A stretch of 64,000 bases of DNA, taken from Nitrospirota bacterium (GTDB lineage Bacteria > Nitrospirota > UBA9217). The translations under genes were made by a program, and so were the position numbers. The DNA is taken from NCBI GenBank assembly GCA_963737155.1, contig CAVTRN010000002.1, positions 896,001 to 960,000 of the forward strand, read 5' to 3'. The notes under the pieces were generated by a model. It was not told the DNA's origin. It did no database searches and saw only the letters and a program-made list of their open reading frames with translations. Shown here one piece after another: positions 42,360 through 64,000 of this stretch; positions within the stretch are counted from its first letter, which is position 1, and each line of letters opens with the position of its first letter.

Positions 42360-44168
42360 TCAGGGGAACGTGGACAGTGCCGGTGTATGCGTGACACCGT
42401 GACATACCAGGGTGCAACTCCCGGAGCGAAACCCGTTGTCGGTGAAGATTGGATAGGGATTGCCGGCGACAGCAGTGACGTACCGGGTATCGAAATTTAT
42501 GAGATGGGTATGCGAACCAGAAATCCCGTTGTCCTGTATTCCATGGGGGTCATGACAGATGGAGCAAGGGGTGTTCTGGCCGACGATGTGCATGTTGTGC
42601 CCGCCGGTGCCCGCACTGTTTTCTCTGAAGCTGACGTCCTGCAGGATGCTGGTCCTGTTATGACAGTAGTAGCAGAGCGCGTAAGCGGTTTGGCTTTCAG
42701 GCGTGCCATCCGCCGTTATGTACTGCTGTCTGATGAGCGGGCTGTACTGGGAGCCATGGGAGCCTCGGGGTCCCGGACCGCCGATCGAACGGCTATCGTC
42801 GCTGTCGTGACAATCGGTGCAGTATATTGTACTGCCCGACGTCATCGAAGGTTCATAGATGGAGGGAATGCTTGGTACGTCGACGGTGAGCATGCCTCTC
42901 CCGACGACAGGATGATATGACGGGTTCGTTATCTGGAACGCGATTCGCGTGTCCACGCTCTTGTCGACGCGCGGGATGGGAAGCGATATTGTCTGGGCGC
43001 TCGAACTCGCATGGCACTTAAAGCAGATTTCGTATTCATTCACTGCGTAATTTGGCGGTATGATTGCAGCTCCCGTGATGTCCACGCCGCTAACTTTTCC
43101 CAAGCTGCCGGGGACCGCCGGCGCCGAACCGGCAGGCTGAGAATTTGCGGCGTGGGGGTTATGGCAGTCGACGCATTCCACATGGCCGGTTATCATGAGC
43201 GGGGATTCGCCCGCTTCGTGGTGGTTTGACGTCACACCAATCTCGGTAGCCTCGACCATATGTCGCGACGGCTTTTGAAACTCTGCCTGGATGTTCGTGG
43301 TATCCACATTCCCGTTATGGCAGGGGTAGCAGTTGTCTTCCTCATTTTGGTAGTTTAAGAGCCTCTTCGGCCCTCCGGCGCTGTGGGGAGCATGACAGTT
43401 TTCGCAGCCGTTCTGCTGCACCGTTGACCACCCGAATTCCGTGCCAATACCCGTCCGGGGCCAGGGATTCGGCTGAACGAGGTTCCAGATGGCCGATGAG
43501 GTATTGTGTGGCGTACTCTCCCATCCATTTAGTGCATGGCAGAGGATACATAATCCTGAATTCTGGCTGTTTACGCGCAGGAATTCCTTGTTGGTGTCGT
43601 CATGGGGGTCATGGCAGGTCGTACATTCGATGATTCCATCCCCATAGAAAAGGAGTCCCTGAGGGAGCACCGGAAACAGCTCCGGGTTAGGAAGCGAGCT
43701 GTAATAGGAAAAGGAAACCGGATGGTGATTGGCAAGGGATGTCCCGAAATAAGACGGGCTCGAGACAGGCATCCCGCCTCCGACGGTCATTGAGATCGTT
43801 TCCGAAGGCTCCAGCACCTCTCCAAGTGCAATGGTCCCATCATGACAGCTTAGGCAGAGCCGGGTGGCTCCAGTCGGGCCCGTCGGCGATGGCGGGCTTA
43901 CCATGGTGCTGCTGGTGTAAGGCGTGTACAGGGCGTAATTAACTGCGTCAATATTCTTGTTCCAGAGCGGCGAAAGAGGGTTCGTGTTGTGGGGCGCGTG
44001 GCAGAAAACGCAGATTCTGCTCTCGGTCAGCGCCTTGATCTGGCCAGGGCCGCTGGCAGAAAGGTTATGTTTGCTATAGATGATACTCATTTTCGCATGG
44101 ACCATGGGTGCCGCGAAAACGATGGCAATACACAGCAACACTGACAGAATGCGCGCATGCCTGTTCAT
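42360..44168 (-). CDS. Dodecaheme c cytochrome with OmcE-like N-terminal tetraheme module
   Basis: Signal peptide; 11 CxxCH plus 1 CxxxCH (CTLVCH). Confidence 0.92.
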   Translation of the reverse strand: MNRHARILSVLLCIAIVFAAPMVHAKMSIIYSKHNLSASGPGQIKALTESRICVFCHAPHNTNPLSPLWNKNIDAVNYALYTPYTSSTMVSPPSPTGPTGATRLCLSCHDGTIALGEVLEPSETISMTVGGGMPVSSPSYFGTSLANHHPVSFSYYSSLPNPELFPVLPQGLLFYGDGIIECTTCHDPHDDTNKEFLRVNSQNSGLCILCHALNGWESTPHNTSSAIWNLVQPNPWPRTGIGTEFGWSTVQQNGCENCHAPHSAGGPKRLLNYQNEEDNCYPCHNGNVDTTNIQAEFQKPSRHMVEATEIGVTSNHHEAGESPLMITGHVECVDCHNPHAANSQPAGSAPAVPGSLGKVSGVDITGAAIIPPNYAVNEYEICFKCHASSSAQTISLPIPRVDKSVDTRIAFQITNPSYHPVVGRGMLTVDVPSIPSIYEPSMTSGSTIYCTDCHDSDDSRSIGGPGPRGSHGSQYSPLIRQQYITADGTPESQTAYALCYYCHNRTSILQDVSFRENSAGTGGHNMHIVGQNTPCSICHDPHGIQDNGISGSHTHLINFDTRYVTAVAGNPYPIFTDNGFRSGSCTLVCHGVTHTPALSTFP

Positions 44169-45211
44169 TGATGGACCCCCGTCATTATGATAATTTGCAC
44201 CCGCTCATTATAAGTATCACATACAAAGAGCTTGCCCTGATCGTTCAGATACAATCCCGTTGGCAAAGTGAACTCCCCCGGTCCGTCGCCGCGTCTGCCG
44301 ATTGTAAATAGAAATTTGCCAGACTCGTCGAACAGCTGGATATTGTCGAACAGGGTATCGACAACATATATAACGCCGTAACGGTCTACGGCAATTCCTT
44401 TCGGCATGGCGAAATCGCCGGAGCCGTTGCCGTGATGGCCGAAGGAAGACAGAAAAGCGCCCGAATCATCGAATATCTGGACCCTGAAATTCATGGCATC
44501 GACCACGTACAGCTTTCCACTGGGCGCGATGGTGATATGGGTGGGATAATTAAGCTGGCCGTTCTTATCCCCTGGTTCGCCGAAGGAGGAGAGGAATGTT
44601 CCCTCCTTCGAATAGGCATACACCTTATCGGCGAGCGTATCAACGACAAATAAAACCTTTTTTCTAGGAGAATAGGCCAGGCCTGTCGGCCTCAGAAGGG
44701 GGATATCCCCGGCTTTTTTTATAGTAAAGAGGTGTTTGCCTGCCCGATCAAACACGTATATCGCACGATTGGCCGAATCCGATACGTACAGCTTCAAATC
44801 ATCGTCGAACACAACGCTCACCGGGACACGCAGCTGCTCCTTGCCAACACTGGTGATTTTCCGGTAGCTTTTCTCCGCTGGGACATAAAGATGGATGCAT
44901 GGCTGGCCTGTGTCGGCTATAGCCATCCTGCCGTCCCCGCCGACGGCGACTGCGACAGGACGTAGTATCCTGGTGTCATTTGCTTGTCTTCCAAACACCA
45001 GGAAACGTACAGTTTCCGACATCGAGGTTCCCGTTTCTGTGAAGTTCCGAATCGTCATTTCCTGGCGAGCAATGGGGGTTTTCGCGGAATCATACCACAC
45101 GACAGGTTCCTTGGGGATATCAGTCGCGGGCGACCATGATGTGGCGCATCCGGAGAAAAACATAGCGGTCGCGCAGAACGCGGTAAAAAGTTCTACCAGA
45201 TATTTCGTCAT
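44165..45211 (-). CDS. NHL-repeat beta-propeller lipoprotein
   Basis: FSG-C lipobox; repeated F..P.GIAVD..G.IYVVD..N.RVQIF. Confidence 0.9.
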   Translation of the reverse strand: MTKYLVELFTAFCATAMFFSGCATSWSPATDIPKEPVVWYDSAKTPIARQEMTIRNFTETGTSMSETVRFLVFGRQANDTRILRPVAVAVGGDGRMAIADTGQPCIHLYVPAEKSYRKITSVGKEQLRVPVSVVFDDDLKLYVSDSANRAIYVFDRAGKHLFTIKKAGDIPLLRPTGLAYSPRKKVLFVVDTLADKVYAYSKEGTFLSSFGEPGDKNGQLNYPTHITIAPSGKLYVVDAMNFRVQIFDDSGAFLSSFGHHGNGSGDFAMPKGIAVDRYGVIYVVDTLFDNIQLFDESGKFLFTIGRRGDGPGEFTLPTGLYLNDQGKLFVCDTYNERVQIIIMTGVHQ

Positions 45212-45411
45212 TTTTTGCCTTGCTTACTCCTCTTCATGGCACCGGTAAAATTCCTGATGCTTCCCCAAAGAGCTGTTATTCCCGCCAATTGCGCGTTGGA
45301 TCCATCCCGGGAGAGCAGTGTTTCCGGAGGAGCCTGCAGCCATCGCAAGAGCACCGGGGTGGTGCAGTGCGACAGCGTCGATCAATCCGCTGTAGCATTG
45401 ATTGACGCGGA

Positions 45412-46185
45412 TTATTTTTTATCCGGCTCCTTTTGTGCCGCGTCATCCATAATCTCGATTGTCGCGTTTTTTCTCAGATCGTCGGACCACACCTGAAAAC
45501 GTTTCATTATCTCTATGGTCTTGAGCTTTTTTGCGATTTCGGGTTTGGCTTCCTCGTACGTCATTTGCCTCTCAGGCGTGTCTCCGGATGCCGGGACGAC
45601 AAATTCCTTTTTCCGGCTATCGTATTCCTTTCGCATATCCTCGTCGGATATGCTCACCTTATCAATCACATCCTGTTTCACGATCAGCTGCATGAGAAAG
45701 ATCCGCCTGACTTGGTCGCGCACGTCCGATGGCGTGAGGTCATGTTCTTTCAGGTATTTCTGGTACCCTGCTTCATGCCCGAGATTCCTGATGACCTTGT
45801 CCATCGCTTTGTCGATTTGCATATCATTGACCTTCAATCCCCGGCGGGTCGCTTCCTGGACTGCCAGTTCCTGAAGCACCAATTCATCAAGCGCAATCTT
45901 TCTCACCGACTCCGGCGTCGCCGGATGCGCTGTGTCAGATATGCGGGAAGTCAGGCGGCCCACTATTGGGCTCAGCATGTCGCTGTATAATGCAACGCCA
46001 TTGACCTTCGCGACGACGTATTTCCGTGTCTCCTGCTTCGCCGCTTGCGGGGGCGGCGAAGGCTGTTCGTGCATACGCGGCTGCGTTGCGCAAGCGGTGA
46101 ATAGGAACACGGCGGCAAAAAAGGGGATCACGGACTTGCTACGGTAATAAAAAGATTTCAAGGTAATCCTCCTGAAAAGGTGCAT
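45412..46185 (-). CDS. SurA/PrsA N-domain chaperone-like lipoprotein lacking parvulin domain
   Basis: FTA-C; VVAKVNG, ALDELVLQELAVQEA.RRGL.V, DLRKNATIEI; start uncertain. Confidence 0.75.
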   Translation of the reverse strand: MHLFRRITLKSFYYRSKSVIPFFAAVFLFTACATQPRMHEQPSPPPQAAKQETRKYVVAKVNGVALYSDMLSPIVGRLTSRISDTAHPATPESVRKIALDELVLQELAVQEATRRGLKVNDMQIDKAMDKVIRNLGHEAGYQKYLKEHDLTPSDVRDQVRRIFLMQLIVKQDVIDKVSISDEDMRKEYDSRKKEFVVPASGDTPERQMTYEEAKPEIAKKLKTIEIMKRFQVWSDDLRKNATIEIMDDAAQKEPDKK

Positions 46186-46300
46186 TTCGCTGAGTGCACC
46201 GGTATGTTGCCCTCCCTGCACATCCCTTGCACGGGAGGTAGCAGGCCGGGCGCTTCTTGATCGATTTTAGTCTCGCGATGAACCGAGCGTTTCCCTAATA

Positions 46301-48352
46301 TTAGAACAGGCTTCTGGTCAGAGTCAAATAATAATACTGAGACATGAGTGAGGTTTCCCCCAATGAAGACAACGAGTCGAGTCGGTTATATTGCGCCCCC
46401 ATATTCACCGATAGCAAGCCTATACGCCATGTCAGATTGGAGTTCAGCGTCGTCGAATTAGAATTAGTGAGGGATCGGGTGATAAAATAGGAACCCGTTA
46501 AATTAAAGCTCAGGTTGTTTTCCAAAAACAGTTTGCTCAACCTCAAATCCGACCCCTCCAGTTTTTGCTGGTAACCCGTGCTGGTGAATATTGACGATGA
46601 TGATGCGTAGTAGTCGGTCACTATATAGGACAGGTCGGCAGAAACGGTGACGCTCTGGCCCTGGCCGAAGTGGTCTTGATACGCAGCCTGGTATTTCCAT
46701 TGGGCGTAAGGATACACCTGGGAACGGTAGCTGGTATGTTCTACTGTTGCGGAAAAGGGCCCGTAAATAGACATAATACCGGCGACCTGGTCGATGACAT
46801 TGTCTGACCCCCCTGCGATTGATCCGGATGTTACAGTTTGTCTTACGACTTGATAACTGTAGTAGGGGCTCAGCAGACGATGCAGGAGGTCTGCCTTGAG
46901 CGAGTAACCCTCTGTATATGTCTTTAACTGTGCTCCTTGTTGCAGCGAGTAGGACACATGAAATTCATATGAATAGTTCGGATTGACTTGGGGCGTCGTT
47001 AGGGGCGGAGACACGCTTATGATGGTTATCTGGGTGGCGGTGCCGAGATGGCTGATCTGGTAATTACTGAGTGGCGATAAGGTCACTAAAAGGCCGGTGG
47101 TAGGATCGAGAACCTGGATCACAATCGTGTTTTCGATGGGATTCAGCTGAAGCAGGGAAAATGTATTGGCCGGCGGAGTAACCGTGGTGTTATGCGTTTC
47201 GTTGATTACTACTGGAGTTCCGTTGGAATCAGAATCGGCTTGCGAGTACAAGACGCTGCCGGCGATCCTGCCGGACGGAATCCACTTCGTATAGGTGCTA
47301 TTGATCGTGTCGATCTTCGTGACGGTATCACCTGACGGGGAGACCATGGAAATGTCGTTATAGGTGAAGTTCGTCACCAGACTATTGTAGAGACGATGGG
47401 AGAGGTTTAAGTAGGTGGTGTTGGTCCTGTCGAACGTCGCGGTTGGCGGTAATGTCGACGACGCTTCCGTGGTCAGGTCGTTTTCATCCTGGTATTGATA
47501 GGAAGCAGCGGCGTTGAAGTTCCAGAATAGAGGCATGTTCAGGTTCTCCGTCCAGTTTTCGATGTCGGTTTTGTAGTCCTGGATATTGACAGACTGCTGG
47601 TTTGTCAGCGCCCTGTCGTAGTGGCTATCCAGCGTGTCCCCGAAAAGACGGATGGTATTGACGAAACTGTAAAATTGCCGATCGGTGTTAACGTTGTAAG
47701 ACGACGAGGATTGGGAGTCTGAATATTGCGCCGCGTTCGACGTTACCCGGGTATTATAATTGGCGCTGAGGCGGTATATGTCCGTATTCGTCCTGTTCGG
47801 TCCCAGATCGGTCGAAGTATCGTCATAGCTTGCGACGAAATTCACAGGCTTTTCCTTATAGCGAATGCTCCCGCCCTCGCTGTCGATCGAAGACCGTTGA
47901 AATTCAAAGAATGATTGGGGCGCTGACGCTGATTGATGGAGTGCGTAAAGCTCGAGGTTATAGGGATGCTCCGGAAGAAAGACCGTTCTCAGATTATAAT
48001 CGACGTCGCCTGAAGTCGAACGGGAGGGATTTGTCGTATAATTCCCGGTAATGTCCCATTGGTTTAAGTATCCTGTTACCTTAGCCGTGAATATTTCAAA
48101 CCTCGGGTGGTATATGAATCCCTCCATCTCGGTGCTGATGTCTTCGCGTAAAAACGTGCCCGATGCTTCTAGCTTTTTGCCGTTTGTCGTGTATTCATCG
48201 GTTTGGGATGTAGCGTTGATCCCCAGGCTTGCGTCACTTTTCATGATCTGGGGAGTAAACGTTAGCTCGTCAGCCCTTGACGCGGAAAGAGGGGGCAGAA
48301 GAATAGATACGAGCGTGGCGCAGGCAATGCCTGTCAGAAGATACCCTCGCAT
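46301..48352 (-). CDS. Large outer-membrane beta-barrel (porin of a porin-cytochrome conduit)
   Basis: Signal peptide; alternating beta-strands rich in Y/S/T/N; GFIYHPR and FLPEHPY motifs; C-terminal LTRSLF. Confidence 0.75.
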   Translation of the reverse strand: MRGYLLTGIACATLVSILLPPLSASRADELTFTPQIMKSDASLGINATSQTDEYTTNGKKLEASGTFLREDISTEMEGFIYHPRFEIFTAKVTGYLNQWDITGNYTTNPSRSTSGDVDYNLRTVFLPEHPYNLELYALHQSASAPQSFFEFQRSSIDSEGGSIRYKEKPVNFVASYDDTSTDLGPNRTNTDIYRLSANYNTRVTSNAAQYSDSQSSSSYNVNTDRQFYSFVNTIRLFGDTLDSHYDRALTNQQSVNIQDYKTDIENWTENLNMPLFWNFNAAASYQYQDENDLTTEASSTLPPTATFDRTNTTYLNLSHRLYNSLVTNFTYNDISMVSPSGDTVTKIDTINSTYTKWIPSGRIAGSVLYSQADSDSNGTPVVINETHNTTVTPPANTFSLLQLNPIENTIVIQVLDPTTGLLVTLSPLSNYQISHLGTATQITIISVSPPLTTPQVNPNYSYEFHVSYSLQQGAQLKTYTEGYSLKADLLHRLLSPYYSYQVVRQTVTSGSIAGGSDNVIDQVAGIMSIYGPFSATVEHTSYRSQVYPYAQWKYQAAYQDHFGQGQSVTVSADLSYIVTDYYASSSSIFTSTGYQQKLEGSDLRLSKLFLENNLSFNLTGSYFITRSLTNSNSTTLNSNLTWRIGLLSVNMGAQYNRLDSLSSLGETSLMSQYYYLTLTRSLF

Positions 48353-48754
48353 GACGGTTTTCCGTTACTCCTTTTTTCGTTTTCGGAAACTGTGCGCACC
48401 CTGGTGAAACGCCACGCTTGCGTCACATCGCAATTCCCGCCGGCGCTCTTTCAAATTCCGCCAGACCACCGAGGACAGCCTGCCTACCGCAGGGCTTCAT
48501 ATGAACTGGCACTGATTTTCCAGAACGGATTTTTCCCCGTTCTTATAGGTACTTATCGGCAGTTTGACGAAATTCTTAAGTACAAAAATGGAACAACCCT
48601 CTCCGTCCGTTCCTATCCACACCGCAATCTGCGCAATAAATCCGGAAGTTGAGCGGGGATGGTCGTCCAAACCATGCCTCGTTTTAGTACCGGAGGCCGA
48701 TTGATCGTACCCGGCTATTCTTCCACTCCGCAATTAATTGCGTACCCTGCGGAG

Positions 48755-49297
48755 TTATTGCAGCATATAATCATTGTCCGAGGCGTGCGGGTTATGGCAT
48801 TCGGTGCATTGCGTTCCCGCAGCGTCCTTGTGGACCTCTCTCGAACTTACATCGGCCTTGTCGTGGCAATAGAAACAGAATGTCGTTGGTTCGGCAACCA
48901 GGAGATAGGCTTTCCCCGATCCGTGGGGATTATGACAGACGATGCAGCCTCCCGATGCGACGGGCCCGTGAATATGCTTTTTATGGATATTGAGATCATG
49001 GCAGTTGAGGCACAGACGCTCAACGGGCATGATCAGTTGACCGCCCCCCTTTCTGTGGCAGGCTTCGCACATTTTCGCTGCGTAAGGGCCGTGCGATTTC
49101 ACCGTAGATTTGTCAAGAGCAGCGAGAGTTGATTTGCTCCCTTTCCCCGGCCCGGATTGGTTACCCGCCTGCCCTTCCGCCGGGACGCCGTCGAAAAAAA
49201 AGCTCAGTGTCTTGTACCGGGTCTCGGATGAGCACCCGGTAAGTGCGATGAGTATCGCCATGCTGATAATGTGCGTTAATTGCACGAACTGCTTCAT
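48755..49297 (-). CDS. Pentaheme c cytochrome lipoprotein
   Basis: LTG-C lipobox, LSFFFDGVP; CEACH, CLNCH, CIVCH, CFYCH, CTECH. Confidence 0.9.
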   Translation of the reverse strand: MKQFVQLTHIISMAILIALTGCSSETRYKTLSFFFDGVPAEGQAGNQSGPGKGSKSTLAALDKSTVKSHGPYAAKMCEACHRKGGGQLIMPVERLCLNCHDLNIHKKHIHGPVASGGCIVCHNPHGSGKAYLLVAEPTTFCFYCHDKADVSSREVHKDAAGTQCTECHNPHASDNDYMLQ

Positions 49298-49299
49298 TG

Positions 49300-50502
49300 T
49301 TATTTACTAGTGGGCTCGCTCTTATTTTCGGGGACTCGCTCCTGCAAGGCTTTCTGCATTCTTTCTTTCAGCAGTTTCAGGAGCTCCGCATCCGACGGAT
49401 ACTGCTTCCCCCGTTCCTTGCCCGCTGCGTAGATGCCGATCATCTTGCTTCCAAACTGGTTGGCAACAATGATGAGATGATCGATCTCGAAATTCGGATC
49501 TGCGAATTTCTGGAAGTACGGGATATCGTCATAATCCATAATAATTTGGGAGGGAAGGTTCATGTCTCCCGGATTGTATCCGGTAGTGCCGAAAAAGAGC
49601 AGGAGATAGCCTTCCGGGCTGAATATCTGCACGTTGCCAAAGGCCGCATCGACAGCGTAGAGATCGTCCTTTCGATCGAGGGCGATGCCGCGTGGCCGGG
49701 CGAAGCGGCCGGACTCCGCGCCCAATCCCCCAATTGACCCCAGAAAATGACCATCCCGGTCATATTGCATGATCTGGAATCTGCCGGCATCGGACACGAA
49801 CAGATGTCCCAGCGAGTTAAAGGAAATGTTCGTTGGCCGGGACAACACTCCAGCCGGATCACCGGTATTTCCCATGTACCTATTGACGGTGCCTTTTTTC
49901 CTGTCCATGACCACGATTCGTGAATTTTCGATATCCGCCACATAGAGTTCGTCCTGATAGGGCACTGCGTCAACAGGCTTCCAGGTCCCGGGCATGCCGA
50001 ACGAACCGACGTAAAAATCGTTTTTATCGAAGACTACAACCTCGCTCCTCACGGGATCGGAGACGTACTTCAGGCCATCGGGTGCTATGCGTATGTTCAC
50101 GGGCTGGACCAGTTTTCCCATGCCCTGAGCGCCCTGTAGCCCGCCGTAGGTCCTTTTTGCAAGGTCAAAGATTATGACACCCTGGTTGAGGTCGCAGACG
50201 TAGATCTTGCCGCCCCACGTCGCTATACCGTAGGGTTTGTCAAGCCTTCGGTCGCTTGCTGATGAGCCGGTAATGAAAGCTTCGAAAGCTGATTTTTTCC
50301 TGGCGATGTCCTTTTCTCCGGTCAAGGAGGTGAGGTACTGGATCCGGGGCAGTTCAGGCGGGCTGGGGAAAAATACCTCTGCCTCCTTTGGCTTTGGAGC
50401 GGAGGCGCATGCTGATAGGAATAGGAACAGGACGCTGACGATAAATAAGTGTTTCTGTATGGTGTTTTTCAACGAGTAAAGCCTTTCTCCATGGATTTCC
50501 AC
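49300..50502 (-). CDS. NHL-repeat beta-propeller lipoprotein
   Basis: LSA-C lipobox; FPSPPELPRIQYL; FARPRGIALD..D.LYAVDAAFGNVQIF. Confidence 0.88.
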   Translation of the reverse strand: MEIHGERLYSLKNTIQKHLFIVSVLFLFLSACASAPKPKEAEVFFPSPPELPRIQYLTSLTGEKDIARKKSAFEAFITGSSASDRRLDKPYGIATWGGKIYVCDLNQGVIIFDLAKRTYGGLQGAQGMGKLVQPVNIRIAPDGLKYVSDPVRSEVVVFDKNDFYVGSFGMPGTWKPVDAVPYQDELYVADIENSRIVVMDRKKGTVNRYMGNTGDPAGVLSRPTNISFNSLGHLFVSDAGRFQIMQYDRDGHFLGSIGGLGAESGRFARPRGIALDRKDDLYAVDAAFGNVQIFSPEGYLLLFFGTTGYNPGDMNLPSQIIMDYDDIPYFQKFADPNFEIDHLIIVANQFGSKMIGIYAAGKERGKQYPSDAELLKLLKERMQKALQERVPENKSEPTSK

Positions 50503-50622
50503 TCATGATGAGGACGGAATCCAATGCCTGCATCGAATAATGGCATCATGACGTGGCAGTAGCGGCTGGGTGGCCAATGGTCAACGATTTTCATCATCAA
50601 TTTTTTTATAATACGAAAAAAC

Positions 50623-51237: not shown

Positions 51238-51510
51238 AATATAGGTAAGCTAGTATATATAACACGGTAATTTGTAATTTTCAATACCAAATTTTTTCGC
51301 AAGCCACAGTGTCGTTTCCCGTTGAGATGTAGCTGGCCAGCCCGATGGTCGGATGATTTGTGATTTTGATCACCGAGAGCAATCCCGATATTGAGTTATA
51401 CTGAAATATTTCCCTCCGGATCCAGGCGGCCAAAATCACCGGAACGGTGAGTAAGGATTTTCTTATTTGATCGAAAGGACATATATGATGTTCGAAGGAA
51501 CAGTCTAAAA

Positions 51511-51545
51511 AAAAAGAGGGGGATGAAATTCATCCCCCTCTTTTT
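51511..51545 (-). terminator. Intrinsic terminator after the OmcE-like gene
   Basis: AAAAAGAGGGGGATGAA-A-TTCATCCCCCTCTTTTT with long U tract on minus strand. Confidence 0.85.
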
Positions 51546-51556
51546 CGATACTGATC

Positions 51557-52327
51557 TTACTTGTTATGGCAGGTGAAGCAAAGGGCGCTATTTGTATCCT
51601 GCACCCAGGTGAACTTCACGCCTTGGGCCTTGGTGTTGTGAACATCATGGCAGGAGCTGCATTCCATCATTCCATTCCAAAGAAGGTCATTGATGGTGAT
51701 GCCGTAGGGGTTCGGACCGCCTATCGGTGTGTCAGCATTGTTGATTTCATCATCAACTGCTGCAACGGCATTGTAATCGAAACCGATGGGATGATGGTTC
51801 GCCAGGTTTCCGCCGCCGCCGATGAGGATTCTACCAGAAGCCATGACATTGCCGGTATTATGCGAAGGTGAAACTCCACCATCAAAATTACCATAGGTGC
51901 TGATGGCGACTGAACCGTCATGGCAGCTGAGGCAGAGTCTCGAAACGCTGCCGGGCTGACCGATAGTAGAAGCTGCGTTATTTTGCTCGTTAATCAAGTT
52001 AGGAGTAACACTGCCGGACGAATAGAGCGTATAGTTTGTCACTTGCGTCAAGCCATGGTTCCAGAGCGGGTAGTAGGTGGCATAGGCAGTAAGGCCCAGG
52101 TTAGCGATATCAGTCGTGCTGGCCGTATGATGCGGTGCATGGCAATAGATACAAATTCGATCCAGTGTGGGATCGGCTAACGTGCCAGCACCCCACTGCG
52201 CGCCTACTCCACTCGTGCTGCTCAGATCATGGGAGGTTCCCTTAATGCCGGTTCCGGGGTTAGCACCGGCCATCGCGTAGCCGGCCAGGGCAAGAACCAA
52301 ACCGACAGCTAGTATAGTTCTTTTCAT
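51557..52327 (-). CDS. omcE: OmcE-like tetraheme cytochrome (candidate nanowire subunit)
   Basis: IKGTSHDLSS, ICIYCHAPH, PLWN, YTLYSS, SRLCLSCHDG, LANHHPIGF, ECSSCHDVH, SALCFTCHNK-stop: same motif order as Geobacter OmcE as recalled; homolog, orthology not tested. Confidence 0.8.
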   Translation of the reverse strand: MKRTILAVGLVLALAGYAMAGANPGTGIKGTSHDLSSTSGVGAQWGAGTLADPTLDRICIYCHAPHHTASTTDIANLGLTAYATYYPLWNHGLTQVTNYTLYSSGSVTPNLINEQNNAASTIGQPGSVSRLCLSCHDGSVAISTYGNFDGGVSPSHNTGNVMASGRILIGGGGNLANHHPIGFDYNAVAAVDDEINNADTPIGGPNPYGITINDLLWNGMMECSSCHDVHNTKAQGVKFTWVQDTNSALCFTCHNK

Positions 52328-52512: not shown

Positions 52513-52529
52513 AGCAAAAGCAGTGCCAG
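52513..52529 (-). promoter_or_regulatory. Sigma-54 promoter for the OmcE-like gene
   Basis: CTGGCACTGCTTTTGCT, consensus TGGCAC-N5-TTGCW. Confidence 0.8.
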
Positions 52530-53090: not shown

Positions 53091-53107
53091 GTGGCATCGT
53101 TTGTGCA
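53091..53107 (+). promoter_or_regulatory. Putative sigma-54 promoter for the 1091-aa cytochrome
   Basis: GTGGCATCGTTTGTGCA (GG-N10-GC). Confidence 0.55.
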
Positions 53108-56300: not shown

Positions 56301-56610
56301 CAGGGCGAAGGACTACAATATCCTGGACATCGTAACCAGCACAACTGGCCTTAGCGATACCCTGACCATTCCGGTCCAGGTACCTGCAAGGGTCTCCATA
56401 ACGTTATCGAGTGTAATCGGTAACGGTACTCAGGTTTCCTTGAAGAGGAACGGCCACACGGTACAGTACATCAGGTCAGCCACCGCCGGTAACCGCTTCA
56501 CCATCATACCGGGTGTCTACTCGATGACTACCTATACAAGGCTCTCTTCAGGCCCAACCACGAGCACATTTGGTCCTTACGACGTTACGAGCAGCGTGAC
56601 GCTGCCGTAA
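53335..56610 (+). CDS. Large secreted octaheme c cytochrome, Thr/Ser/Gly-rich, with C-terminal PKD-like domain
   Basis: Signal peptide; 8 CxxCH; 16 additional Cys; VSFNDTS...VNWGDG...FTHTY. Confidence 0.9.
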   Translation: MYIKKNLMLWLAVLAVALPLILTGTASAKYLSDGAVPNGQGEWAAPIDGICALSLSPTGTYAVDTTVPTVRDCQARLIVTTPTTSAPTKQVCGNSAGNTAGLLYAAPGSSTCVTVNMPYSASTPSSGLITGTISMKNLDRSAQMCNGNGGFLASDATNVNQAEIMATGGNACVAYGWQNAGQNPATGAPLTFGANGVTGGISNTNTAGFCYFTGDLSTAYSVATCPTSTSNATVSLGYSISGGKCVYSYVITGYPSAALTNPTVSTGGALQVVTAADTFVDLSGITTQGACVVAGGTWNNWGVNVVAGSTSTASVATTANASTIVKFNTALQAIGSTDGCLHCHSSLVQDNSLVDRWSKDTYLKTGHKNMLRKVGAASTKWTNWAGPDGVIYTTDGALTTSDTISWPADSAYIYSKGVNTTLTYIVGDWMTVYPTLEYPGSAYSCAACHTTGYNDSVNPGTQSLGTPGYNGAQPAAAGTNYAASVSGGDQWDLEGIQCGRCHNAAAPAEAQANITGGCTGTYTTQSTCNAGGYAWVASESSFSTTVPVTTGMGNLAAGTGRVNLCFGCHQSIAKLWPAEGGTSAGTTQYDPTLIPASITATKSDFSGHVLGNSFLNSVHARYSGVNSATAPGGIQNNSLGKFDLVDPNGTVEYNSQFQGYLCGSPGATFPSQPSIDTTNPDGSKITTKTQCDALYACSLSTNTTVKYPTQTACTSAGGKWASTWQSDGQGTCTTCHDVHNSLFVPSESQASIRKSCEDCHVNNVASVTGPVTNATSTFAPQVENFNHPQVGGTPFDTSLYSSSCEVCHMALVAVGSSGDASYPPYLTGQFQQLSFAMHVWRINTSPNYSTFPTYSVFSGSNGLTKDDNAQTSPESYMTANGTTAIDNKAVWVDVDLACGQCHGGSNGTTYTQNGAPYKTKAVLAAQAVNMHMLASTQPVASTSTVTTSGYTVSFNDTSASAIGGSITVNWGDGNVTDGMAGGSFTHTYVRAKDYNILDIVTSTTGLSDTLTIPVQVPARVSITLSSVIGNGTQVSLKRNGHTVQYIRSATAGNRFTIIPGVYSMTTYTRLSSGPTTSTFGPYDVTSSVTLP

Positions 56611-57027: not shown

Positions 57028-57783
57028 ATGCGAAGACAATTGATGACAGCGGTTGTTCTGGCCCTTTTACTTGTGCAGTTTATGCTTGCCGGATGCAAGA
57101 AAACGGAAACGGCGGTCACGACCGCTTCCCTCACAGAACAGGAAGCCGCGCGCCATCAAGATGAGATGATCAAACAGAGCCTGGAAGATTCGAAAAAAAT
57201 GGTTGCCGCAAAGGTCAATGGTGAGCCTATTACTATGTTCTTCGTGTTGCGGGAAATGAATGCAATTGTCCCCCAGTACCTTAAGCAGGGCCAGCAGCGG
57301 ACGCCGGAGATTGACAAAAAAGTCAGGGCCGACGCGTTGAACGACCTGATATTCGAGACCTTGGCGGTGCAGGAAGCGAGAAAGCGTGGCATGACGGTAA
57401 AGCCGGAGGCAATCGATGCCGAGATCAGGAATGATGGTTCGGACCAGTCTTTAAAAAAGTATCTGGCCGACTCTGGCCTTGCAGACGCCGACTTCCGGAA
57501 AGGCATCGAGCAAGACTTGCTGTTTGAAATGATTGCGGGCCAGGAGATCGACGCGAAGATCAAGGTTACCGAGGCGGCCCTGCGGGAACGCTATCGGAAG
57601 GAAAAAGCCCAATGGAAGACAGCCGACGCTGCACACAAACAGATGACCTTTGAGCAGGCCCGTGCCCTGATCGAGCAGAAAGTCAGGGAGGAAGAGGGCG
57701 AGAAGCGTATGCGGCAGTGGGAGATGGACCTTCGGAAAAACGCTACCATTGAAATCGCTGATACAAAGCAGAAACACGGGTAA
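57028..57783 (+). CDS. SurA/PrsA N-domain chaperone-like lipoprotein lacking parvulin domain (paralog of 45412-46185)
   Basis: LAG-C; VAAKVNG, ALNDLIFETLAVQEARKRGM.V, DLRKNATIEI. Confidence 0.78.
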   Translation: MRRQLMTAVVLALLLVQFMLAGCKKTETAVTTASLTEQEAARHQDEMIKQSLEDSKKMVAAKVNGEPITMFFVLREMNAIVPQYLKQGQQRTPEIDKKVRADALNDLIFETLAVQEARKRGMTVKPEAIDAEIRNDGSDQSLKKYLADSGLADADFRKGIEQDLLFEMIAGQEIDAKIKVTEAALRERYRKEKAQWKTADAAHKQMTFEQARALIEQKVREEEGEKRMRQWEMDLRKNATIEIADTKQKHG

Positions 57784-58250: not shown

Positions 58251-58892
58251 CTAAAACTCGATCAGCAGGCCCGCCCGGTAGAATGTGCCTCCGAGGTTTT
58301 CCGACACGGAGCTTACAATGGCCCGGGTGTGTTCGGCCTCGACAAAGATTGAGGTATGGAGCACGCCGTAATTGAAATACATCATGCTTGCAGCGCTCTC
58401 GTCCAGGTTGTCCAGGGAAAGCTGCAGGCCGCCCCGGATATTATATCCATCTCCGTGACCGCGTGTGGTTGGCTGGCCCTCGGTCGTCTCGATGTAGTAA
58501 CTTCTGGTAAACCCCCCGCCGAGATAAGGCACTACCCACTGGTTTTCCACCACGACGGCGCGGGCTATGACGAACAAATCGACCGGGATGAGCTCATAGG
58601 TCGCGCTTCCGGTTAAATTTCCGTGAAATTCCTCATAACCCTCTCCCGTCACCTTCATGTGGTCCAAACCGACACCGGCCTCGAGCTGCGGCAGAATCTT
58701 GTACGCCAGTGAAGCCCCATACTCCGGCAGGCGGCTTCTGCCGAAGTAATGCGACAGGTTCTTGAGCGCGGGCTCGAATGATCCGCCCTCGAATTCAAGT
58801 GACCAGTGCGACTGCTCCAGCAGCGGTTCCGCGGCCGGCGTAACTGATGGAAGTATTGTCAGGATCAAGAGGATGATAATTATTTTCACCAA
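58251..58892 (-). CDS. Small outer-membrane beta-barrel, MXAN_2562-like
   Basis: Signal peptide; QWVVPYLGGG, LDNLDESAA.MM..NYGV.HT.IF.E; C-terminal LLIEF. Confidence 0.7.
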   Translation of the reverse strand: MVKIIIILLILTILPSVTPAAEPLLEQSHWSLEFEGGSFEPALKNLSHYFGRSRLPEYGASLAYKILPQLEAGVGLDHMKVTGEGYEEFHGNLTGSATYELIPVDLFVIARAVVVENQWVVPYLGGGFTRSYYIETTEGQPTTRGHGDGYNIRGGLQLSLDNLDESAASMMYFNYGVLHTSIFVEAEHTRAIVSSVSENLGGTFYRAGLLIEF

Positions 58893-58994: not shown

Positions 58995-60761
58995 TCAGGA
59001 GCTGGAACTCTTTCTCCGTTTTCTCACGATCCAGAAGAGGATGGTGCTTCCCATAACCAGCGTTACTATGGCCTCTTTGAGCGCTGCCGAAGTTCTCACC
59101 GTGAAGGCGGCTCCGGCCACGACAGGCATCAGCAAGGCTCGCACAGCGGGCTTGAATGCCGGATGAGCGTTTAGGTAAGTCGCGGCATAAGGCCCGTAAT
59201 GATAATACCATGCGACCAGCAGTCTGCCAGGTACTGAAGTCAGGAGATAGCGGTCACGGAAAGAGCGCAGGATCAGAACTTCTGGCGCCGTGTACGATCC
59301 GTATGCGGCCGTTGCGATAAAACAGCTGCCGCTCGTATTCGGCAGGCCCGGATAGGAAAGGGCCTTGTCGGGATAATTGATTTCAATGTTCGACTCACCG
59401 CTTTCAAGCGGCTGGCCGAGCGTGGCGGACACTTCAGGGGAATACGCGCTTACATGCGTGGGATCAAAAGTGCTGTCATAGACCTGAACAACCATATAAT
59501 AAGTTGCTTTGGCATAAGCCGTCACCGCGATGCGGTAGGGCTGGCCGTTCGTAAGGCCGGTAAGCGTGTAGGTCGTGGCATTGCCGACATCGATGGTGTT
59601 CTCTCCGGGTGATGTTATCCCATAATGGACCTTGTATCCCAACGCGCCCGTGGACGCCGACCACGTCAAAAGAAGCGCCGAGTTTAGTGGTGTTGGTTGA
59701 TTAAGGACTGGACTTGGCGGGACCAGGGACGCGGGGTTCAAGTCCTCCAGCGTATAGGTACTGTAAGGCCCTGCGTCAATGGGGGACGGAGCCGTTCCGC
59801 TATTCGCATCCGTGCCGTTATAGTTGCCCGAGGAGTAGCCGTAGTAAACATAATAGCCGCCCGATGATATGTCGTTCGTCACAAGATAGCTGAGGTTCGG
59901 ATCCCAAGTGAGGGTGATCGAGGAGGCCGTGATTGATGTGACGGACAGTCCCATGACGGGAAAGGGATAGATGTCCTCAGCGGGCCCGCCATATGCGCCG
60001 ATATCATCCGGCGCTCCGTCGATGAGGTTGGCCCCGAGCGCTGGATCGCCTGCGTTGATACAGGGAGACCCTTCCTCGACGTGAAAGTCAAAATCGGGTG
60101 GATTCGCGAAGAGTGGATCCCCCATGACTGGGAATGTGCCTGTGGGGCCGTTGATGGAATTTTCGTAGAAGAGGTTGTAGGTGATTAGCGTTGCATTCGC
60201 AGGGATGCCGGCAAGCGCAGTCCCGTTGTTCGCGAAGATGTTACTGTCGATTGTAATGTTCGCATCGGCGCTTACGGCCGTCCCGTTGTTGTAAAAGGTA
60301 TTGTTAACCACCTTGGTGGTGGGAGATTGCTGGATCTGGATTGCCGTTCCGCTGGTCCCGACTGCAAACACGTTATTCATTATTTCGAGGGTGGAGGAGT
60401 TGCTGGAAACGAGGATTCCGGTTGTGGCATTGATGAAGGTGAAGTTGCTGATCGACGTCTCGACCGAACCACTGGCTGTGACGATGGGGCCGGAGCCATT
60501 GTTCATGCTCAGAAAGGTCCGGGCGGTTTCCTGGCCATGGACGGTAACGTCATTCGTAAGTGTTATGGCTCCCACATAAGTCCCCGGCAAAACCAGGATA
60601 TCATCGCCGGGGCTTGCTGCTGTTATTGCCGCCTGGATCGTCGGGTAATCAGTCGGGACGGTGATCTCGGCCGCTCCGGCGCCGAAGGGCGAGACCAGAA
60701 GGAAAAAAGTAAAAACAGCCGATGCCAGCGTGATTATATGATTGAGACGGGATTGTTGCAT
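58995..60761 (-). CDS. CFI-box-CTERM surface protein with beta-helix and FN3-like domains
   Basis: VPTDYPTIQAAI beta-helix start; GYKVHYG...YTLTGLTNG FN3; CFIATAAYGS...LRSFRDRYL...YY.YGP plus TM and basic tail. Confidence 0.85.
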   Translation of the reverse strand: MQQSRLNHIITLASAVFTFFLLVSPFGAGAAEITVPTDYPTIQAAITAASPGDDILVLPGTYVGAITLTNDVTVHGQETARTFLSMNNGSGPIVTASGSVETSISNFTFINATTGILVSSNSSTLEIMNNVFAVGTSGTAIQIQQSPTTKVVNNTFYNNGTAVSADANITIDSNIFANNGTALAGIPANATLITYNLFYENSINGPTGTFPVMGDPLFANPPDFDFHVEEGSPCINAGDPALGANLIDGAPDDIGAYGGPAEDIYPFPVMGLSVTSITASSITLTWDPNLSYLVTNDISSGGYYVYYGYSSGNYNGTDANSGTAPSPIDAGPYSTYTLEDLNPASLVPPSPVLNQPTPLNSALLLTWSASTGALGYKVHYGITSPGENTIDVGNATTYTLTGLTNGQPYRIAVTAYAKATYYMVVQVYDSTFDPTHVSAYSPEVSATLGQPLESGESNIEINYPDKALSYPGLPNTSGSCFIATAAYGSYTAPEVLILRSFRDRYLLTSVPGRLLVAWYYHYGPYAATYLNAHPAFKPAVRALLMPVVAGAAFTVRTSAALKEAIVTLVMGSTILFWIVRKRRKSSSS

Positions 60762-60934
60762 TGATTGTCCTCTTTTACATAATTTACCGACTAATCCGGT
60801 CAAATTTCAATTCACACGTTCCTGCTGTCTGTTTGGCCTGTCACGCTTGTGCAGGGAACGACTGCTTATGCGGGGAGCGCCGGACGCCTGCCTGCGCGCG
60901 AGAGATATGGCTGTACTGGCCTGTCTTATCCGGC

Positions 60935-61354
60935 TCAGCGGATAATCGATATCCCCGGCAATGTCTTGTGACAACTGTAGCAGAAAGTTTTTCCATTGGA
61001 CCTTCTGAGATAATAAAGTTTTTCACCATTCTCAGCCCGATACTCTCCATGAAAGGCATGACAGGTGATGCATACGATTCTGCCCTGATCGTCCAGAGGC
61101 ATGTCAGAAGGGATGATCATGGAGGGTGCCACGTTCACCGGATGCGAAAACACTTTTGCGGTCCCGTGACTCCCCTGGTGGCATGCTACGCATGAGTTAT
61201 TCACCTCGCTTCGAAGGTCCGGTTTGCCCTTGAACGGGAGGTGCCTGTGGCATTCGATACAGGGCGTATTCAACAAATCGTTGTGCGCGTCGTTCTGGTT
61301 GTTCTGTGAAGAGGCGGTGAGTACGGCGGCCAATATGATGGCGGAGATGATCAT
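60935..61354 (-). CDS. Small tetraheme c cytochrome
   Basis: CIECH, CVACH, CITCH, CYSCH. Confidence 0.88.
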   Translation of the reverse strand: MIISAIILAAVLTASSQNNQNDAHNDLLNTPCIECHRHLPFKGKPDLRSEVNNSCVACHQGSHGTAKVFSHPVNVAPSMIIPSDMPLDDQGRIVCITCHAFHGEYRAENGEKLYYLRRSNGKTFCYSCHKTLPGISIIR

Positions 61355-61932
61355 AATTTAAAAGCCTGGATCTGGTCTTCCATGGATTTGATTATCCGTC
61401 TCATGTTTTGGCGTGCGGCCGAAGATTCTGGGGTGGCTGGCGGGTTTCTCAATGGTTCGGTAGCCTTGACCAGCTCCTCGGCGTGGTCTTTTAAACCCTT
61501 GAACCGGCTGTTGAATTCCTCGGCCATTATGTTGATATTTCCTGCAAACTCCCGGAACTCATCGTTTTCCCTCAGAATGACGCGGGAACCAAGATCGCCG
61601 TCTGCGATCTTATGAAGGTCCACGCTAATATGATGGAGCGACCCTTCTATTTTCCGGTACATGGCCTGGAACACCAAAAGGAACAGAAGACTGACGGTAA
61701 TCGCTGCGACAATGCAGGCGACAAATGCCACCGGGGAAAGCAGCGCGCCGACGTCTGTGTGGGGCAGACTCATGGAAAAAAGAATGCTGTTGATCTTTTT
61801 CTTGGCCAGATAAATGAACAGGGTGACTGCGATGACATTTGCGAGTAATGATGCAACGAAAAAGGGGATAATATATCTTGTCTGAAAGCTCTTCAGGACG
61901 AAATAGTTTCTTCTTCGGAATTTTTCCCCCAC
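61351..61932 (-). CDS. Two-TM plus HAMP plus coiled-coil protein without output domain
   Basis: RRRNYFVLKSFQ, two TMs, IADGDL...LRENDEFREFA..IN.M. Confidence 0.75.
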   Translation of the reverse strand: MGEKFRRRNYFVLKSFQTRYIIPFFVASLLANVIAVTLFIYLAKKKINSILFSMSLPHTDVGALLSPVAFVACIVAAITVSLLFLLVFQAMYRKIEGSLHHISVDLHKIADGDLGSRVILRENDEFREFAGNINIMAEEFNSRFKGLKDHAEELVKATEPLRNPPATPESSAARQNMRRIIKSMEDQIQAFKL

Positions 61933-62000
61933 AGATACCCCCCTTTTGCGGCGAAACCGGCACCGTAAATATAATCGTTACAGACAGCTCAAATCACCCA

Positions 62001-62828
62001 TCACACAATATGGCATGCGAAGCACAGCTTGCTGTTCTCATCGCTCATAACCAGCTGTTGGGGAATCGTCGAGTAAGGGTCGTGACAGGACCCGCAGCCG
62101 ATTTTGCCGTTGAAGAACTTTATCCTTGGGTCAACGATGTCCATGGGCCTCAGATCCGTTTTAGCTCCCCTATTGATTCGTACTGATTCATAGTCTATAC
62201 CGATCGGATGACTGTTCTGGTCATGCCGCATAAATCCCATTTGATGTTTCCACGTACCAACCCGGATTGTTACCGAAGTGGCGTATGTCCCGTCATGGCA
62301 TGATATGCAATTTCTGGACATGGCGTCAATTTCCTGGCTTGAATCGGTCACGACATATTGAGACCGGAAATGCGCCTCACCCAGCGATGCGCTGTGTCCA
62401 CTGCTCAACGCGTTTAAATTCCCGTGGCAGATCTTGCAGAACGCCTCCCCGCTTTCCCCTCGTCTGAGGAAGTGAGTAGGGGCTCCATACGGAGTGGTAT
62501 AATCGGCATGGACGTCATGGCAGGTGCTGCACGTTAATTCACCGGACGGGGAGAGCGGCATGTCTGCCGGGATGAAGACGCGCTGAGGCTTGACATCGTA
62601 GGGATGCATGTAGCCCTCGGACAGCCCCTTCTCGTGGCACTTGTTGCAGATTTCGGTTATCGGCGCGTTCATCTCCCGAGCTTCCGCCCCTGATTTTGCG
62701 GGGTTCGGCTGGATATGACACGATGAGCATTGTGTAAAGGCGTGAGGCTGGTTTTCGTTGCTGATGACAAGCAGGGTCAGGAGAAGGAAACCAATAAAAA
62801 TAAGGGCAATCACGCTTTTTTTCCTCAT
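62001..62828 (-). CDS. Heptaheme c cytochrome with N-terminal TM/signal
   Basis: CSSCH, CNKCH, CSTCH, CKICH, CISCH, CGSCH, CFACH. Confidence 0.9.
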   Translation of the reverse strand: MRKKSVIALIFIGFLLLTLLVISNENQPHAFTQCSSCHIQPNPAKSGAEAREMNAPITEICNKCHEKGLSEGYMHPYDVKPQRVFIPADMPLSPSGELTCSTCHDVHADYTTPYGAPTHFLRRGESGEAFCKICHGNLNALSSGHSASLGEAHFRSQYVVTDSSQEIDAMSRNCISCHDGTYATSVTIRVGTWKHQMGFMRHDQNSHPIGIDYESVRINRGAKTDLRPMDIVDPRIKFFNGKIGCGSCHDPYSTIPQQLVMSDENSKLCFACHIV

Positions 62829-63385
62829 ATCTTGATCTGATTGAGCAATGCCCTGATCTCATCTATTCTTTTAAAAATTTTCCCTGTCGCTGCTTTATTT
62901 TCGCTCAGGGGGGGCTGCTTTTCCAGATCGTCCAAAATGGCCGCAAGCTCCCGGGTTTTCGTTTCCAGCTGCACGAGTACGCCGCGATAGCGGCCTGAAA
63001 GATTGTTGAACTCGTCCGCAAGATCATGAAGAACATCATGGGTCCTGAGACGGACTGTGCCGGCGAGGTCCCCTTCAGCAATTTTTTTGGTAATCAAGCC
63101 CAGCTTGTAAATTGGGCCGGCCACGCGGTGGGAGTATATGACCGATATGATGATCGCCCCAACGGCGCTTACCAGCAGGGTGAAGGCAAATACCATGAGG
63201 ACCCGCGTTACGAGTCCCTCGTTCAATTCGGCCAGGAGTTTATAGCTTTCTGCGTAGGTCGTCCCGCCATGCTTCTGGAATGCAAGATAGAATCCGCATG
63301 CAATCAAGATCGCTACGCCGGCAAGGAGGACCAAGATGGTACGAACTACGTTTTTCACATACGATTCAGGCAGCGCACGTTGCAT
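62825..63385 (-). CDS. Two-TM plus HAMP plus coiled-coil protein without output domain
   Basis: SHRVAGPIYKL, IAEGDL...LRTHDVLHDLADEFN. Confidence 0.75.
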   Translation of the reverse strand: MQRALPESYVKNVVRTILVLLAGVAILIACGFYLAFQKHGGTTYAESYKLLAELNEGLVTRVLMVFAFTLLVSAVGAIIISVIYSHRVAGPIYKLGLITKKIAEGDLAGTVRLRTHDVLHDLADEFNNLSGRYRGVLVQLETKTRELAAILDDLEKQPPLSENKAATGKIFKRIDEIRALLNQIKI

Positions 63386-63450
63386 TTGTTAAGTAACCCT
63401 CATTGTTATGTTGCGTCCGTTGAACGACAGGTTATTCCGCGCTACAGCGG

Positions 63451-64000
63451 TCATTTCCCCCCTGCTGCCGGAGCTGGCGATGTTTCCTTGGGCCAGACGT
63501 TTGCAGCCTTTTTACGGTCATAGGAGAATTTCTGATGGCAACCCGGCGCGCAGCTGCCGCCGTTCTCGGTTTTTTTGAAATTCAAGGGGAGATGCCACTT
63601 TCCGAAGACTACGTAGTTCTGGATCAGTCTAGGGTTCTCGCCGGCATGTACAGCATGACAGACCCGGCATGCTTTGCCGCGGTCTTGCCTGTTGACGTGA
63701 AGGTAATGTAGATTTCTATCCCCATCGCGGAACCCTGTTGCAAACTGGGTTGTGGGAAACCTGAGCAGATCGCGGTTGTGACAGCTGAAGCAAAGCGGGA
63801 AATCAGTGTCGTTATAGGAAACATAGAAATCGGTCGAGTAGGGTTTTATCAGGAGCTTGTCATTCGGCGTGCCATGGGGGTTGTGGCAGGCAGTGCACTT
63901 CCCTTCCTTGATCGGGCCGTGGAGCACAGTATCAGTCTTCGCGATGAGATCCTTGTGGCAGCCGAGGCAGAGGTCTTTAATGGATTTCGGCAGGAGCTTG
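63451..64000 (-). CDS. Multiheme c cytochrome (5' end outside window)
   Basis: Frame open to window edge: CLGCH, CTACH, CFSCH, CRVCH, CAPGCH. Confidence 0.88.
   Translation of the reverse strand, partial: KLLPKSIKDLCLGCHKDLIAKTDTVLHGPIKEGKCTACHNPHGTPNDKLLIKPYSTDFYVSYNDTDFPLCFSCHNRDLLRFPTTQFATGFRDGDRNLHYLHVNRQDRGKACRVCHAVHAGENPRLIQNYVVFGKWHLPLNFKKTENGGSCAPGCHQKFSYDRKKAANVWPKETSPAPAAGGK

Follow-up and report, generated by a model that had tools for sequence, protein, structure and literature searches.

Gene content and conservation of the cluster

The subject of this analysis is a cytochrome gene cluster in a 64,000-nucleotide stretch of contig CAVTRN010000002.1 (the window, whose numbering is used throughout). 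Its centre is a core of seven genes on the minus strand, at 42360-52327, encoding a homologue of the filament cytochrome OmcE, two NHL beta-propeller proteins, a pentahaem cytochrome, a predicted 28-strand barrel, a SurA-like protein and a dodecahaem cytochrome. From omcE onwards the genes are:

51557..52327, minus strand: OmcE-family tetrahaem cytochrome of 256 residues, the predicted filament subunit, from matches to 7TFS and 9YUQ
49300..50502, minus strand: NHL1, a beta-propeller lipoprotein of 400 residues, next after omcE, from a Pfam NHL match and a lipobox-like Cys
48755..49297, minus strand: pentahaem lipoprotein cytochrome of 180 residues, paired-CxxCH type, from five haem motifs and Pfam
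46301..48352, minus strand: outer-membrane beta-barrel of 683 residues, from a predicted model
45412..46221, minus strand: SurA1, a SurA-N lipoprotein of 269 residues, from Pfam
44165..45211, minus strand: NHL2, a beta-propeller lipoprotein of 348 residues, from Pfam, overlapping the dodecahaem start by 4 nucleotides
42360..44168, minus strand: dodecahaem cytochrome of 602 residues, an OmcE domain (about residues 26-212) with an octahaem extension, candidate cap or anchor

An earlier note, made from the sequence of the window, had described the region from this core to the window's end as one cytochrome-nanowire island. Every gene that it listed is where it had been placed and has the haem count it was given; the seventh cytochrome, credited with at least five haems, has 15 in total and runs past the window. 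The association of an OmcE filament-subunit homologue with a barrel, propellers and chaperone-like lipoproteins is likewise borne out by the matches to 7TFS and 9YUQ, by Pfam and by the barrel model. NHL1, NHL2, SurA1 and the SurA2 protein described further below all have a lipobox-like Cys in addition to their NHL or SurA-N Pfam matches.

A profile of the barrel is positive in 9 of 38 genomes of the family, the window genome included; a query with the single barrel sequence over the relatives' contigs confirmed none, and the profile did match relatives. The order NHL1-pentahaem-barrel-SurA-NHL2-dodecahaem is kept in all eight family relatives that have the barrel, and omcE stands upstream in seven of them, the contig of the eighth ending at that point. 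Exceptions within the core are an NHL2 in two pieces in genome G019 and two SurA genes in G133 (genomes and loci are numbered G and L). This recurrence takes the gene set far beyond chance.

Named genomes were then covered by a scan with an OmcE alignment, from which the best 79 loci of 610 confirmed matches were kept. They come from Bacteroidota, Calditrichota, Verrucomicrobiota, Pseudomonadota, Acidobacteriota and Desulfobacterota, and the 36 that span at least 20 kb were treated as full-length. The barrel occurs in 60 of the 79, the dodecahaem in 45 and a SurA gene in 6; among the 36 the barrel is found in 33, the dodecahaem fusion in 30 and SurA in 5. Judged by gene content, the seven-gene core is conserved across many phyla, with looser modules around it. 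SurA1 has no parvulin peptidyl-prolyl isomerase domain, which is kept in all four relatives aligned. Between omcE and NHL1 lie broken transposase-like frames (about 50690-51150, plus strand), where relatives have only a short gap; this insertion might uncouple the downstream genes.

The OmcE homologue

Among PDB chains the 256-residue tetrahaem protein matches 7TFS (E 5.7e-19) and 9YUQ (E 2.4e-14), and no OmcS chain at E <= 0.01. It has all four CxxCH motifs; the four His of the family (33, 66, 179, 230) are invariant, and the presumed interface residue, His66, is present in 120 of 120 homologues. Relatives of the window OmcE clade have further His, mostly at 67 and 114. In OmcE, one haem is ligated by a His from the next subunit (PMC13712944).

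Two elements frame the gene:

52513..52528, minus strand: sigma-54-type promoter motif, about 200 nucleotides upstream of omcE
51507..51545, no strand assigned: GC-rich hairpin with flanking runs of A and T, just past omcE

Motifs of the first kind were called with the general sigma-54 consensus. One precedes omcE in seven of seven relatives tested and in the second Geobacterales cluster discussed below (L122), and is lacking at the classic omcE locus (L120); about 0.02 would be expected by chance per 450 nucleotides at the window's own rate. A scan of the window for sigma-70 promoters and terminators gave counts at chance level; the hairpin, found by eye and not in that scan's list of terminators, is likely one. 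A promoter motif of its own and a hairpin behind it are the pattern expected of a highly expressed subunit.

The barrel

The 683-residue protein matches no Pfam or NCBIfam family. An AlphaFold2 model built from 118 homologues predicts an all-beta protein (mean predicted local distance difference test score 91) with about 28 long strands, counted by hand from the DSSP list; a plug domain is absent, and residues 381-470 form an inserted beta domain. The best Foldseek match of this model is MtrB (6R2Q_B; E 1.8e-9, TM-score 0.36); the VIA Z scores are 15.9 for SprA, 15.6 for MtrB (root-mean-square deviation 7.5 over 436 aligned residues) and 14.2 for FimD.

An OmcE domain fused to an octahaem cytochrome

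The last gene of the core encodes 12 haem motifs, 11 CxxCH and one CxxxCH. Over residues 11-212 its product matches 9YUQ from end to end (E 3.9e-19), and 7TFS at E 1.7e-26. A complete N-terminal OmcE domain is present in all 65 dodecahaem proteins examined, a set from which three shorter matches were dropped and which leaves variants of 850-1000 residues outside the query's reach. Among 64 orthologues, His34, 60, 149, 189, 221 and 262 are invariant, and each of 15 non-motif His is found in 60 or more of them, where 12 distal ligands are needed; the C-terminal end has surplus conserved His at 524, 527, 542 and 594. Immediately before 63 of the 64 fusion genes stands an NHL gene, in each case one that scores closer to NHL2. 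In a quick tree of 87 of the 176 domain rows, the N-terminal domains of the fusions fall on one side with a support of 87. The dodecahaem was rejected as an equivalent of ExtA or MtrA, its N-terminus being OmcE-like.

We take the ligation pattern of OmcS, in which the His behind an odd-numbered motif is the ligand of the haem two positions earlier, to hold here as well; by it, His262 would be the in-cis ligand that closes haem 3. Another locus, in six Geobacterales genomes, has the protein in split form, as a tetrahaem and an octahaem behind NHL2 with the break after the OmcE domain. In all six, Phe replaces the His three residues past the first motif of the octahaem, the position of His262, as would be expected if His262 serves an attached OmcE domain.

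For an anchor, Petersen et al. 2026 (PMC13712944) expect nine His to four haems, and they found no anchor or tip gene inside omcE clusters. The dodecahaem, an OmcE-like domain with a ninth conserved His, matches the sequence side of this hypothetical nine-His anchor, and His262 as the ninth His fits the self-satisfying anchor sought there. A description of an OmcE-fusion dodecahaem was found neither in searches of an open-access library nor in the text of that paper, and one may be printed elsewhere, including in its figures or supplement. What looks new is the full OmcE domain, together with the NHL gene directly upstream and His262 as the ninth His.

The split locus (L152-L156, L158) is itself conserved, with NHL2, an OmcE-like tetrahaem, an octahaem and mostly then a small trihaem. 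Presumably, from their N-termini, a Lon-like protease precedes NHL2 and a PilB/GspE-like ATPase stands at the end. A SurA-like gene lies before NHL2 in two of the six. Additional His are present in the tetrahaems, which might represent the nine-His type of anchor in PMC13712944.

Comparison with known systems

The omcE gene cluster, with homologues in five phyla including Nitrospirota, was defined by Petersen et al. 2026 (PMC13712944), so that the cluster type itself is already published. The window shares with it, as known from D. soudanensis (9YUQ) and G. sulfurreducens (7TFS), an OmcE-like tetrahaem cytochrome and a large barrel, and also has a pair of beta-propeller lipoproteins and two additional multihaem cytochromes, which places its gene content within the definition.

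For Geobacterales, 20 stretches were fetched by hand from the order of a Geobacter metagenome-assembled genome (81 genomes, 54 of them with OmcE-family matches). The classic locus L120 in G056, whose OmcE is identical to 7TFS, lies by purH/resB/ccsB and glycosylation-type genes, whereas the window core does not follow purHDE-resB-ccsB. L120 also differs in having 8- and 9-haem cytochromes and one NHL match, and neither a pentahaem nor an OmcE fusion; its 755-residue protein compares with the window barrel at a probability of 2.3%, profile against single sequence. In the quick tree the classic OmcEs form a group of their own (support 99) with the window OmcE outside it. Orthology to the classic omcE locus was rejected, as position, barrel and OmcE clade all differ.

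A second cluster in the same genome, L122, has the order OmcE-like, NHL1, pentahaem, barrel, NHL2, dodecahaem, the same sigma-54 motif, a homologous barrel (hhalign 99.3%, E 1.3e-20) and a dodecahaem of 35% identity. A 13-motif cytochrome lies upstream of it and large 7-haem cytochromes downstream. It differs from the window in having no SurA in the core, no HAMP cassette (see below) and a subtilase-type protein upstream. The window clade groups with four of five second-cluster subunits at a support of 94, against a mark of 95, which is suggestive only. By gene order and homology, then, the window core matches a second, little-studied Geobacterales cluster and not the classic omcE locus. The earlier note had considered that the region might be orthologous to an already characterised Geobacter cluster: the synteny with L122 and the published cluster type speak for this, but L122 is not the characterised omcE locus. 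From the fit of its cytochrome spacing to GSU3218, 3221, 3223, 3226, 3228 and 3232, L122 is probably GSU3218-GSU3232; genes with these tags were co-induced on hematite and magnetite (PMC4070692), the mapping to L122 being inferred from the spacing. Apart from transcript and mutation tables, an open-access library has almost no literature on an L122-type cluster, only four of its papers mentioning any of the six tags.

Other systems are less close. In the osc (OmcS companion) cluster, Shen et al. 2025 assigned folding to OscH, secretion to OscEFG and morphology to OscD, as described in PMC13194489 and PMC13712944. Compared by description only, it resembles the window in encoding a wire subunit with its own helpers, and differs in that this subunit is the hexahaem OmcS and not of OmcE type. 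The MtrAB, Pcc and Ext conduits also have a large plug-less barrel beside multihaem cytochromes, but the window differs from them in the inserted barrel domain, the NHL propellers and the OmcE-type subunits. No MtrAB or DmsEF family model passed: the barrel matches 0 families, and TIGR03508 scores 24-49 bits against a cut-off of 192. The term "NHL" is absent from the accessible text of the pcc survey PMC4245776.

A proposed capped cytochrome wire and its alternatives

With modest confidence, we favour the reading that the seven-gene core is a conserved OmcE-family cluster of a second subtype, which likely builds an outer-surface cytochrome wire that the dodecahaem would cap at one end. A sensor kinase with a haem motif and a sigma-54 activator would switch on omcE and, divergently, a large cytochrome (both described below), and the exported cytochromes would receive their haem from housekeeping ResB/CcsA. 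Handling of OmcE would fall to NHL1 and that of the dodecahaem to NHL2, a holdase role for SurA1 being optional, and the plug-less barrel would be both exit pore and mount. OmcE would polymerise by giving one His to the haem of the next subunit; the dodecahaem would give His60 to the last OmcE, and its own His262 would fill the haem that OmcE leaves open, so that growth would stop. As a base anchor, the dodecahaem could reach with its extra haems through the barrel to the pentahaem lipoprotein and the 15-haem cytochrome; if it is a cap at all, we think the base a somewhat likelier place for it than the tip. We speculate further, and more doubtfully, that this widespread OmcE subtype encodes its own terminal cap in every one of these details: a wire end joined covalently beforehand, docking on the last OmcE by His60, His262 acting in cis, a haem chain through a new family of 28-strand barrels and one NHL protein per subunit type, the whole having gone unrecognised in Geobacterales (L122).

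Several points weigh against this reading. In the window OmcE clade two extra His are conserved, His178 in 120 of 120 homologues and His91 in 119; these may form a metal site or ligate a haem in cis, and in the latter case might close the protein's own haem and leave it a monomer. The barrel fold is generic in its matches, MtrB, SprA and the FimD usher lying within about 2 Z units of one another. The 79 loci were picked by similarity to the window OmcE, some are centred on the dodecahaem, and kin among them are not independent; their counts therefore describe this subtype and not all OmcE loci. The fusion gene is found in none of eight classic loci within the stretches fetched. The OmcE encoded at such loci forms filaments all the same, so OmcE wires in general do not need a fused cap. 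The split NHL2-tetrahaem-octahaem module is without this barrel in six of six loci, so the module can exist apart from the pore. Lastly, it is by the same OmcS pattern that His60 would be free to bind the wire, and the assignment of the interface His depends on it; published accounts of OmcE say only that one His crosses the interface.

Of the other explanations the strongest, which we nevertheless consider unlikely, is a non-filamentous porin-cytochrome conduit, in which the dodecahaem or pentahaem would fill the barrel as MtrA does MtrB, and the tetrahaem would be a surface cytochrome, monomeric or in short oligomers, whose extra His closes the open haem. It would account for the invariant extra His of the clade and for a plug-less barrel with MtrB as best Foldseek match and second by VIA Z. 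The subtype is also common in Bacteroidota, Calditrichota and Verrucomicrobiota, from which we know of no wire that has been shown. The TM-score of 0.36 to MtrB and the lack of any passing MtrB or MtrA family model speak against it, as do the invariance of His66, the promoter motif and trailing hairpin of omcE, and the presence of a separate decahaem cluster elsewhere in the genome (C2:1035526-1046151).

Less probable still is that the dodecahaem is a second polymer subunit, either of a 12-haem wire of its own or as a minor subunit of the OmcE wire, delivered by NHL2. Its donor-type His60 is kept in 64 of 64 orthologues, in many loci of Bacteroidota and Calditrichota NHL2 and the dodecahaem stay together while standing apart from omcE, and the split form occurs with neither omcE nor the barrel nearby. 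However, the C-terminal His524, 527, 542 and 594 are enough to close the last haems in cis, and the dodecahaem gene stands last in the operon, behind the omcE hairpin, which suggests a low copy number.

The secretion, start, stop and anchoring of cytochrome nanowires are stated as open in PMC13712944 and PMC12307469. The cluster offers a cap candidate within the operon and a prediction at the level of residues (His60 as donor, His262 in cis); if the wire is capped as we propose, it would answer the published question of what ends an OmcE wire and holds it in place. The orthologous cluster shares a genome with the solved OmcE, so the idea is likely testable by knockouts in a model Geobacter. 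The capacity for nanowires would also likely extend to Nitrospirota, Bacteroidota, Calditrichota and Verrucomicrobiota. Should the cap idea fail, what is left is a further example of a kind of cluster already in print.

Likely regulatory genes

The likely regulators lie on the far side of the dodecahaem gene, with a third gene that has homologues near the cluster in four relatives, and one further motif lies beyond omcE:

53092..53107, plus strand: divergent sigma-54-type motif upstream of the large cytochrome, from the same consensus
32780..34663, plus strand: sensor histidine kinase with one CxxCH, likely cluster regulator, from Pfam and recurrence beside the cluster
36253..37512, plus strand: sigma-54 activator (receiver and AAA), likely cluster regulator, from Pfam and recurrence beside the cluster
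40154..41761, plus strand: lipoprotein of 535 residues, unassigned to any named family and with a sigma-54-type motif of its own, outside the range of the earlier note

A CxxCH motif is present in 16 of 24 kinase matches within OmcE loci. Homologues of the 535-residue lipoprotein lie near the cluster or the dodecahaem in G002, G010, G124 and G133.

Accessory modules and haem attachment

On the other side of the core, up to the end of the window, follow:

53335..56610, plus strand: octahaem cytochrome of 1091 residues with many extra Cys, accessory module, from haem motifs and relatives
57028..57783, plus strand: SurA2, a SurA-N lipoprotein without a peptidyl-prolyl isomerase domain, from Pfam
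58251..58892, minus strand: MXAN_2562-like small beta-barrel, extra copy of a family-wide gene, from NCBIfam
58995..60803, minus strand: CFI-box-CTERM protein (beta-helix and fn3), extra copy of a family-wide gene, from Pfam and NCBIfam
60935..61354, minus strand: small tetrahaem cytochrome (139 residues, 4 haems) of the HAMP-cytochrome cassette
61351..61932, minus strand: short membrane protein with a HAMP-like segment
62001..62828, minus strand: heptahaem cytochrome (275 residues, 7 haems) of the HAMP-cytochrome cassette
62825..63385, minus strand: short membrane protein with a HAMP-like segment
63451..64000, minus strand: 3' part of a 15-haem paired-CxxCH periplasmic-type cytochrome of 445 residues, whose start is at position 64788

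The octahaem of 1091 residues is likely a variable surface cytochrome: its relatives end in PKD or carboxypeptidase-regulatory-like domains, and the divergent large cytochrome ranges from 7 to 32 motifs and from 987 to 1662 residues across G002, G018, G019 and G124. It has no meaningful PDB sequence match and no Atlas match above 0.78. SurA2 stands behind the large cytochrome in G002, in G019 and twice in G124, and is therefore likely that cytochrome's own helper. In G019 (L025/L026) the same cluster is flanked by giant cytochromes of 21, 32 and 34 haem motifs, the first two of which end in PKD domains.

The CFI-box-CTERM protein passes NF041770 (92.5 bits against a cut-off of 40); the small barrel matches NF040596 (MXAN_2562) over its full length with 89.9 bits, just short of the cut-off of 100. 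Small barrels of this kind occur in 23 of 24 family genomes, the majority of which do not have the cluster, and the window genome has a second CFI-box/small-barrel pair on C1. Dedicated export by this pair was accordingly rejected, the pair being family-wide and duplicated. It also adjoins the cluster in G019.

One of the HAMP-like proteins has a weak Pfam HAMP match (18.9 bits, cut-off 25), the other only partial matches to sensor-kinase models. Alternating with the 7- and 4-haem cytochromes, they form a mobile cassette, possibly a redox-sensing or membrane-anchoring unit. The HAMP-heptahaem-HAMP-tetrahaem cassette adjoins the cluster in G002 and lies inside the core in G029, G038, L049 and L093; it is about 79 kb off in G019, and four relatives have it on contigs other than that of the cluster. 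The 445-residue cytochrome has 13 CxxCH and two atypical motifs, five of the 15 inside the window, and in other phyla is often found near the core.

Three accessory modules can be told apart from the core: the large octahaem with SurA2, the CFI-box/small-barrel pair, and the cassette of HAMP proteins and cytochromes. The whole order of the region is kept in one relative only, G002, of the same genus. The earlier note's picture of a self-contained island with its own biogenesis kit does not hold: ResB and CcsA lie elsewhere in the genome, the CFI-box/small-barrel pair is duplicated, and SurA is rare among the full-length loci. Nor is the HAMP cassette a fixed part, being often elsewhere in the genome. 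The idea that all 22 kb form a single self-contained, mobile unit, with the CFI-box protein and the small barrel as its own export system, is thus largely refuted and very improbable, for all that G002 keeps the full order, G019 has the pair beside the cluster, the OmcE and heptahaem queries match the same 11 of 24 family genomes and the barrel is patchy in the family, given also a GC content of 0.516 against 0.494 +/- 0.026 and no tRNA within the 64-kb window. A recent horizontal island was rejected on these last two grounds, the GC content not being atypical.

Host and flanking sequence

The suggestion that the host may not be a Geobacter is upheld: it is probably a member of the Nitrospirota, from which most of the best named homologues come. 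A piece of 900 residues, which we take from a motif to be part of the RNA polymerase large subunit, scores 1535 bits against two Nitrospirota metagenome-assembled genomes; of the other three of the five comparison genomes, a Geobacter genome scores 1450, a third Nitrospirota genome 1448 and a Desulfobacterota genome 1362. RecA does not separate the candidates, the Geobacter genome being highest with 553 against 534 bits.

Two receiver-PilZ proteins at 37920-39470 (minus strand), with a sigma-54-type motif before them, lie beside the cluster in G002 too. Between the haem-motif kinase and the sigma-54 activator there are a HEARO RNA (RF02033) and an open reading frame of 411 residues (34663-36182, plus strand), the latter of which we take to resemble IscB. 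Another tetrahaem cytochrome, at 27840-28433 (plus strand), has a homologue in G002 and G036, within the cluster or adjoining it. A frame of 402 residues at 29405-30613 (minus strand) presumably encodes an IS110-type transposase. The stretch at 1-27452, about 15 kb from the cluster, is low in GC (33-46%) and has several frames that, named from their sequence, are glycosyltransferase- and ABC-transporter-like; glycosylation genes follow the classic omcE clusters.

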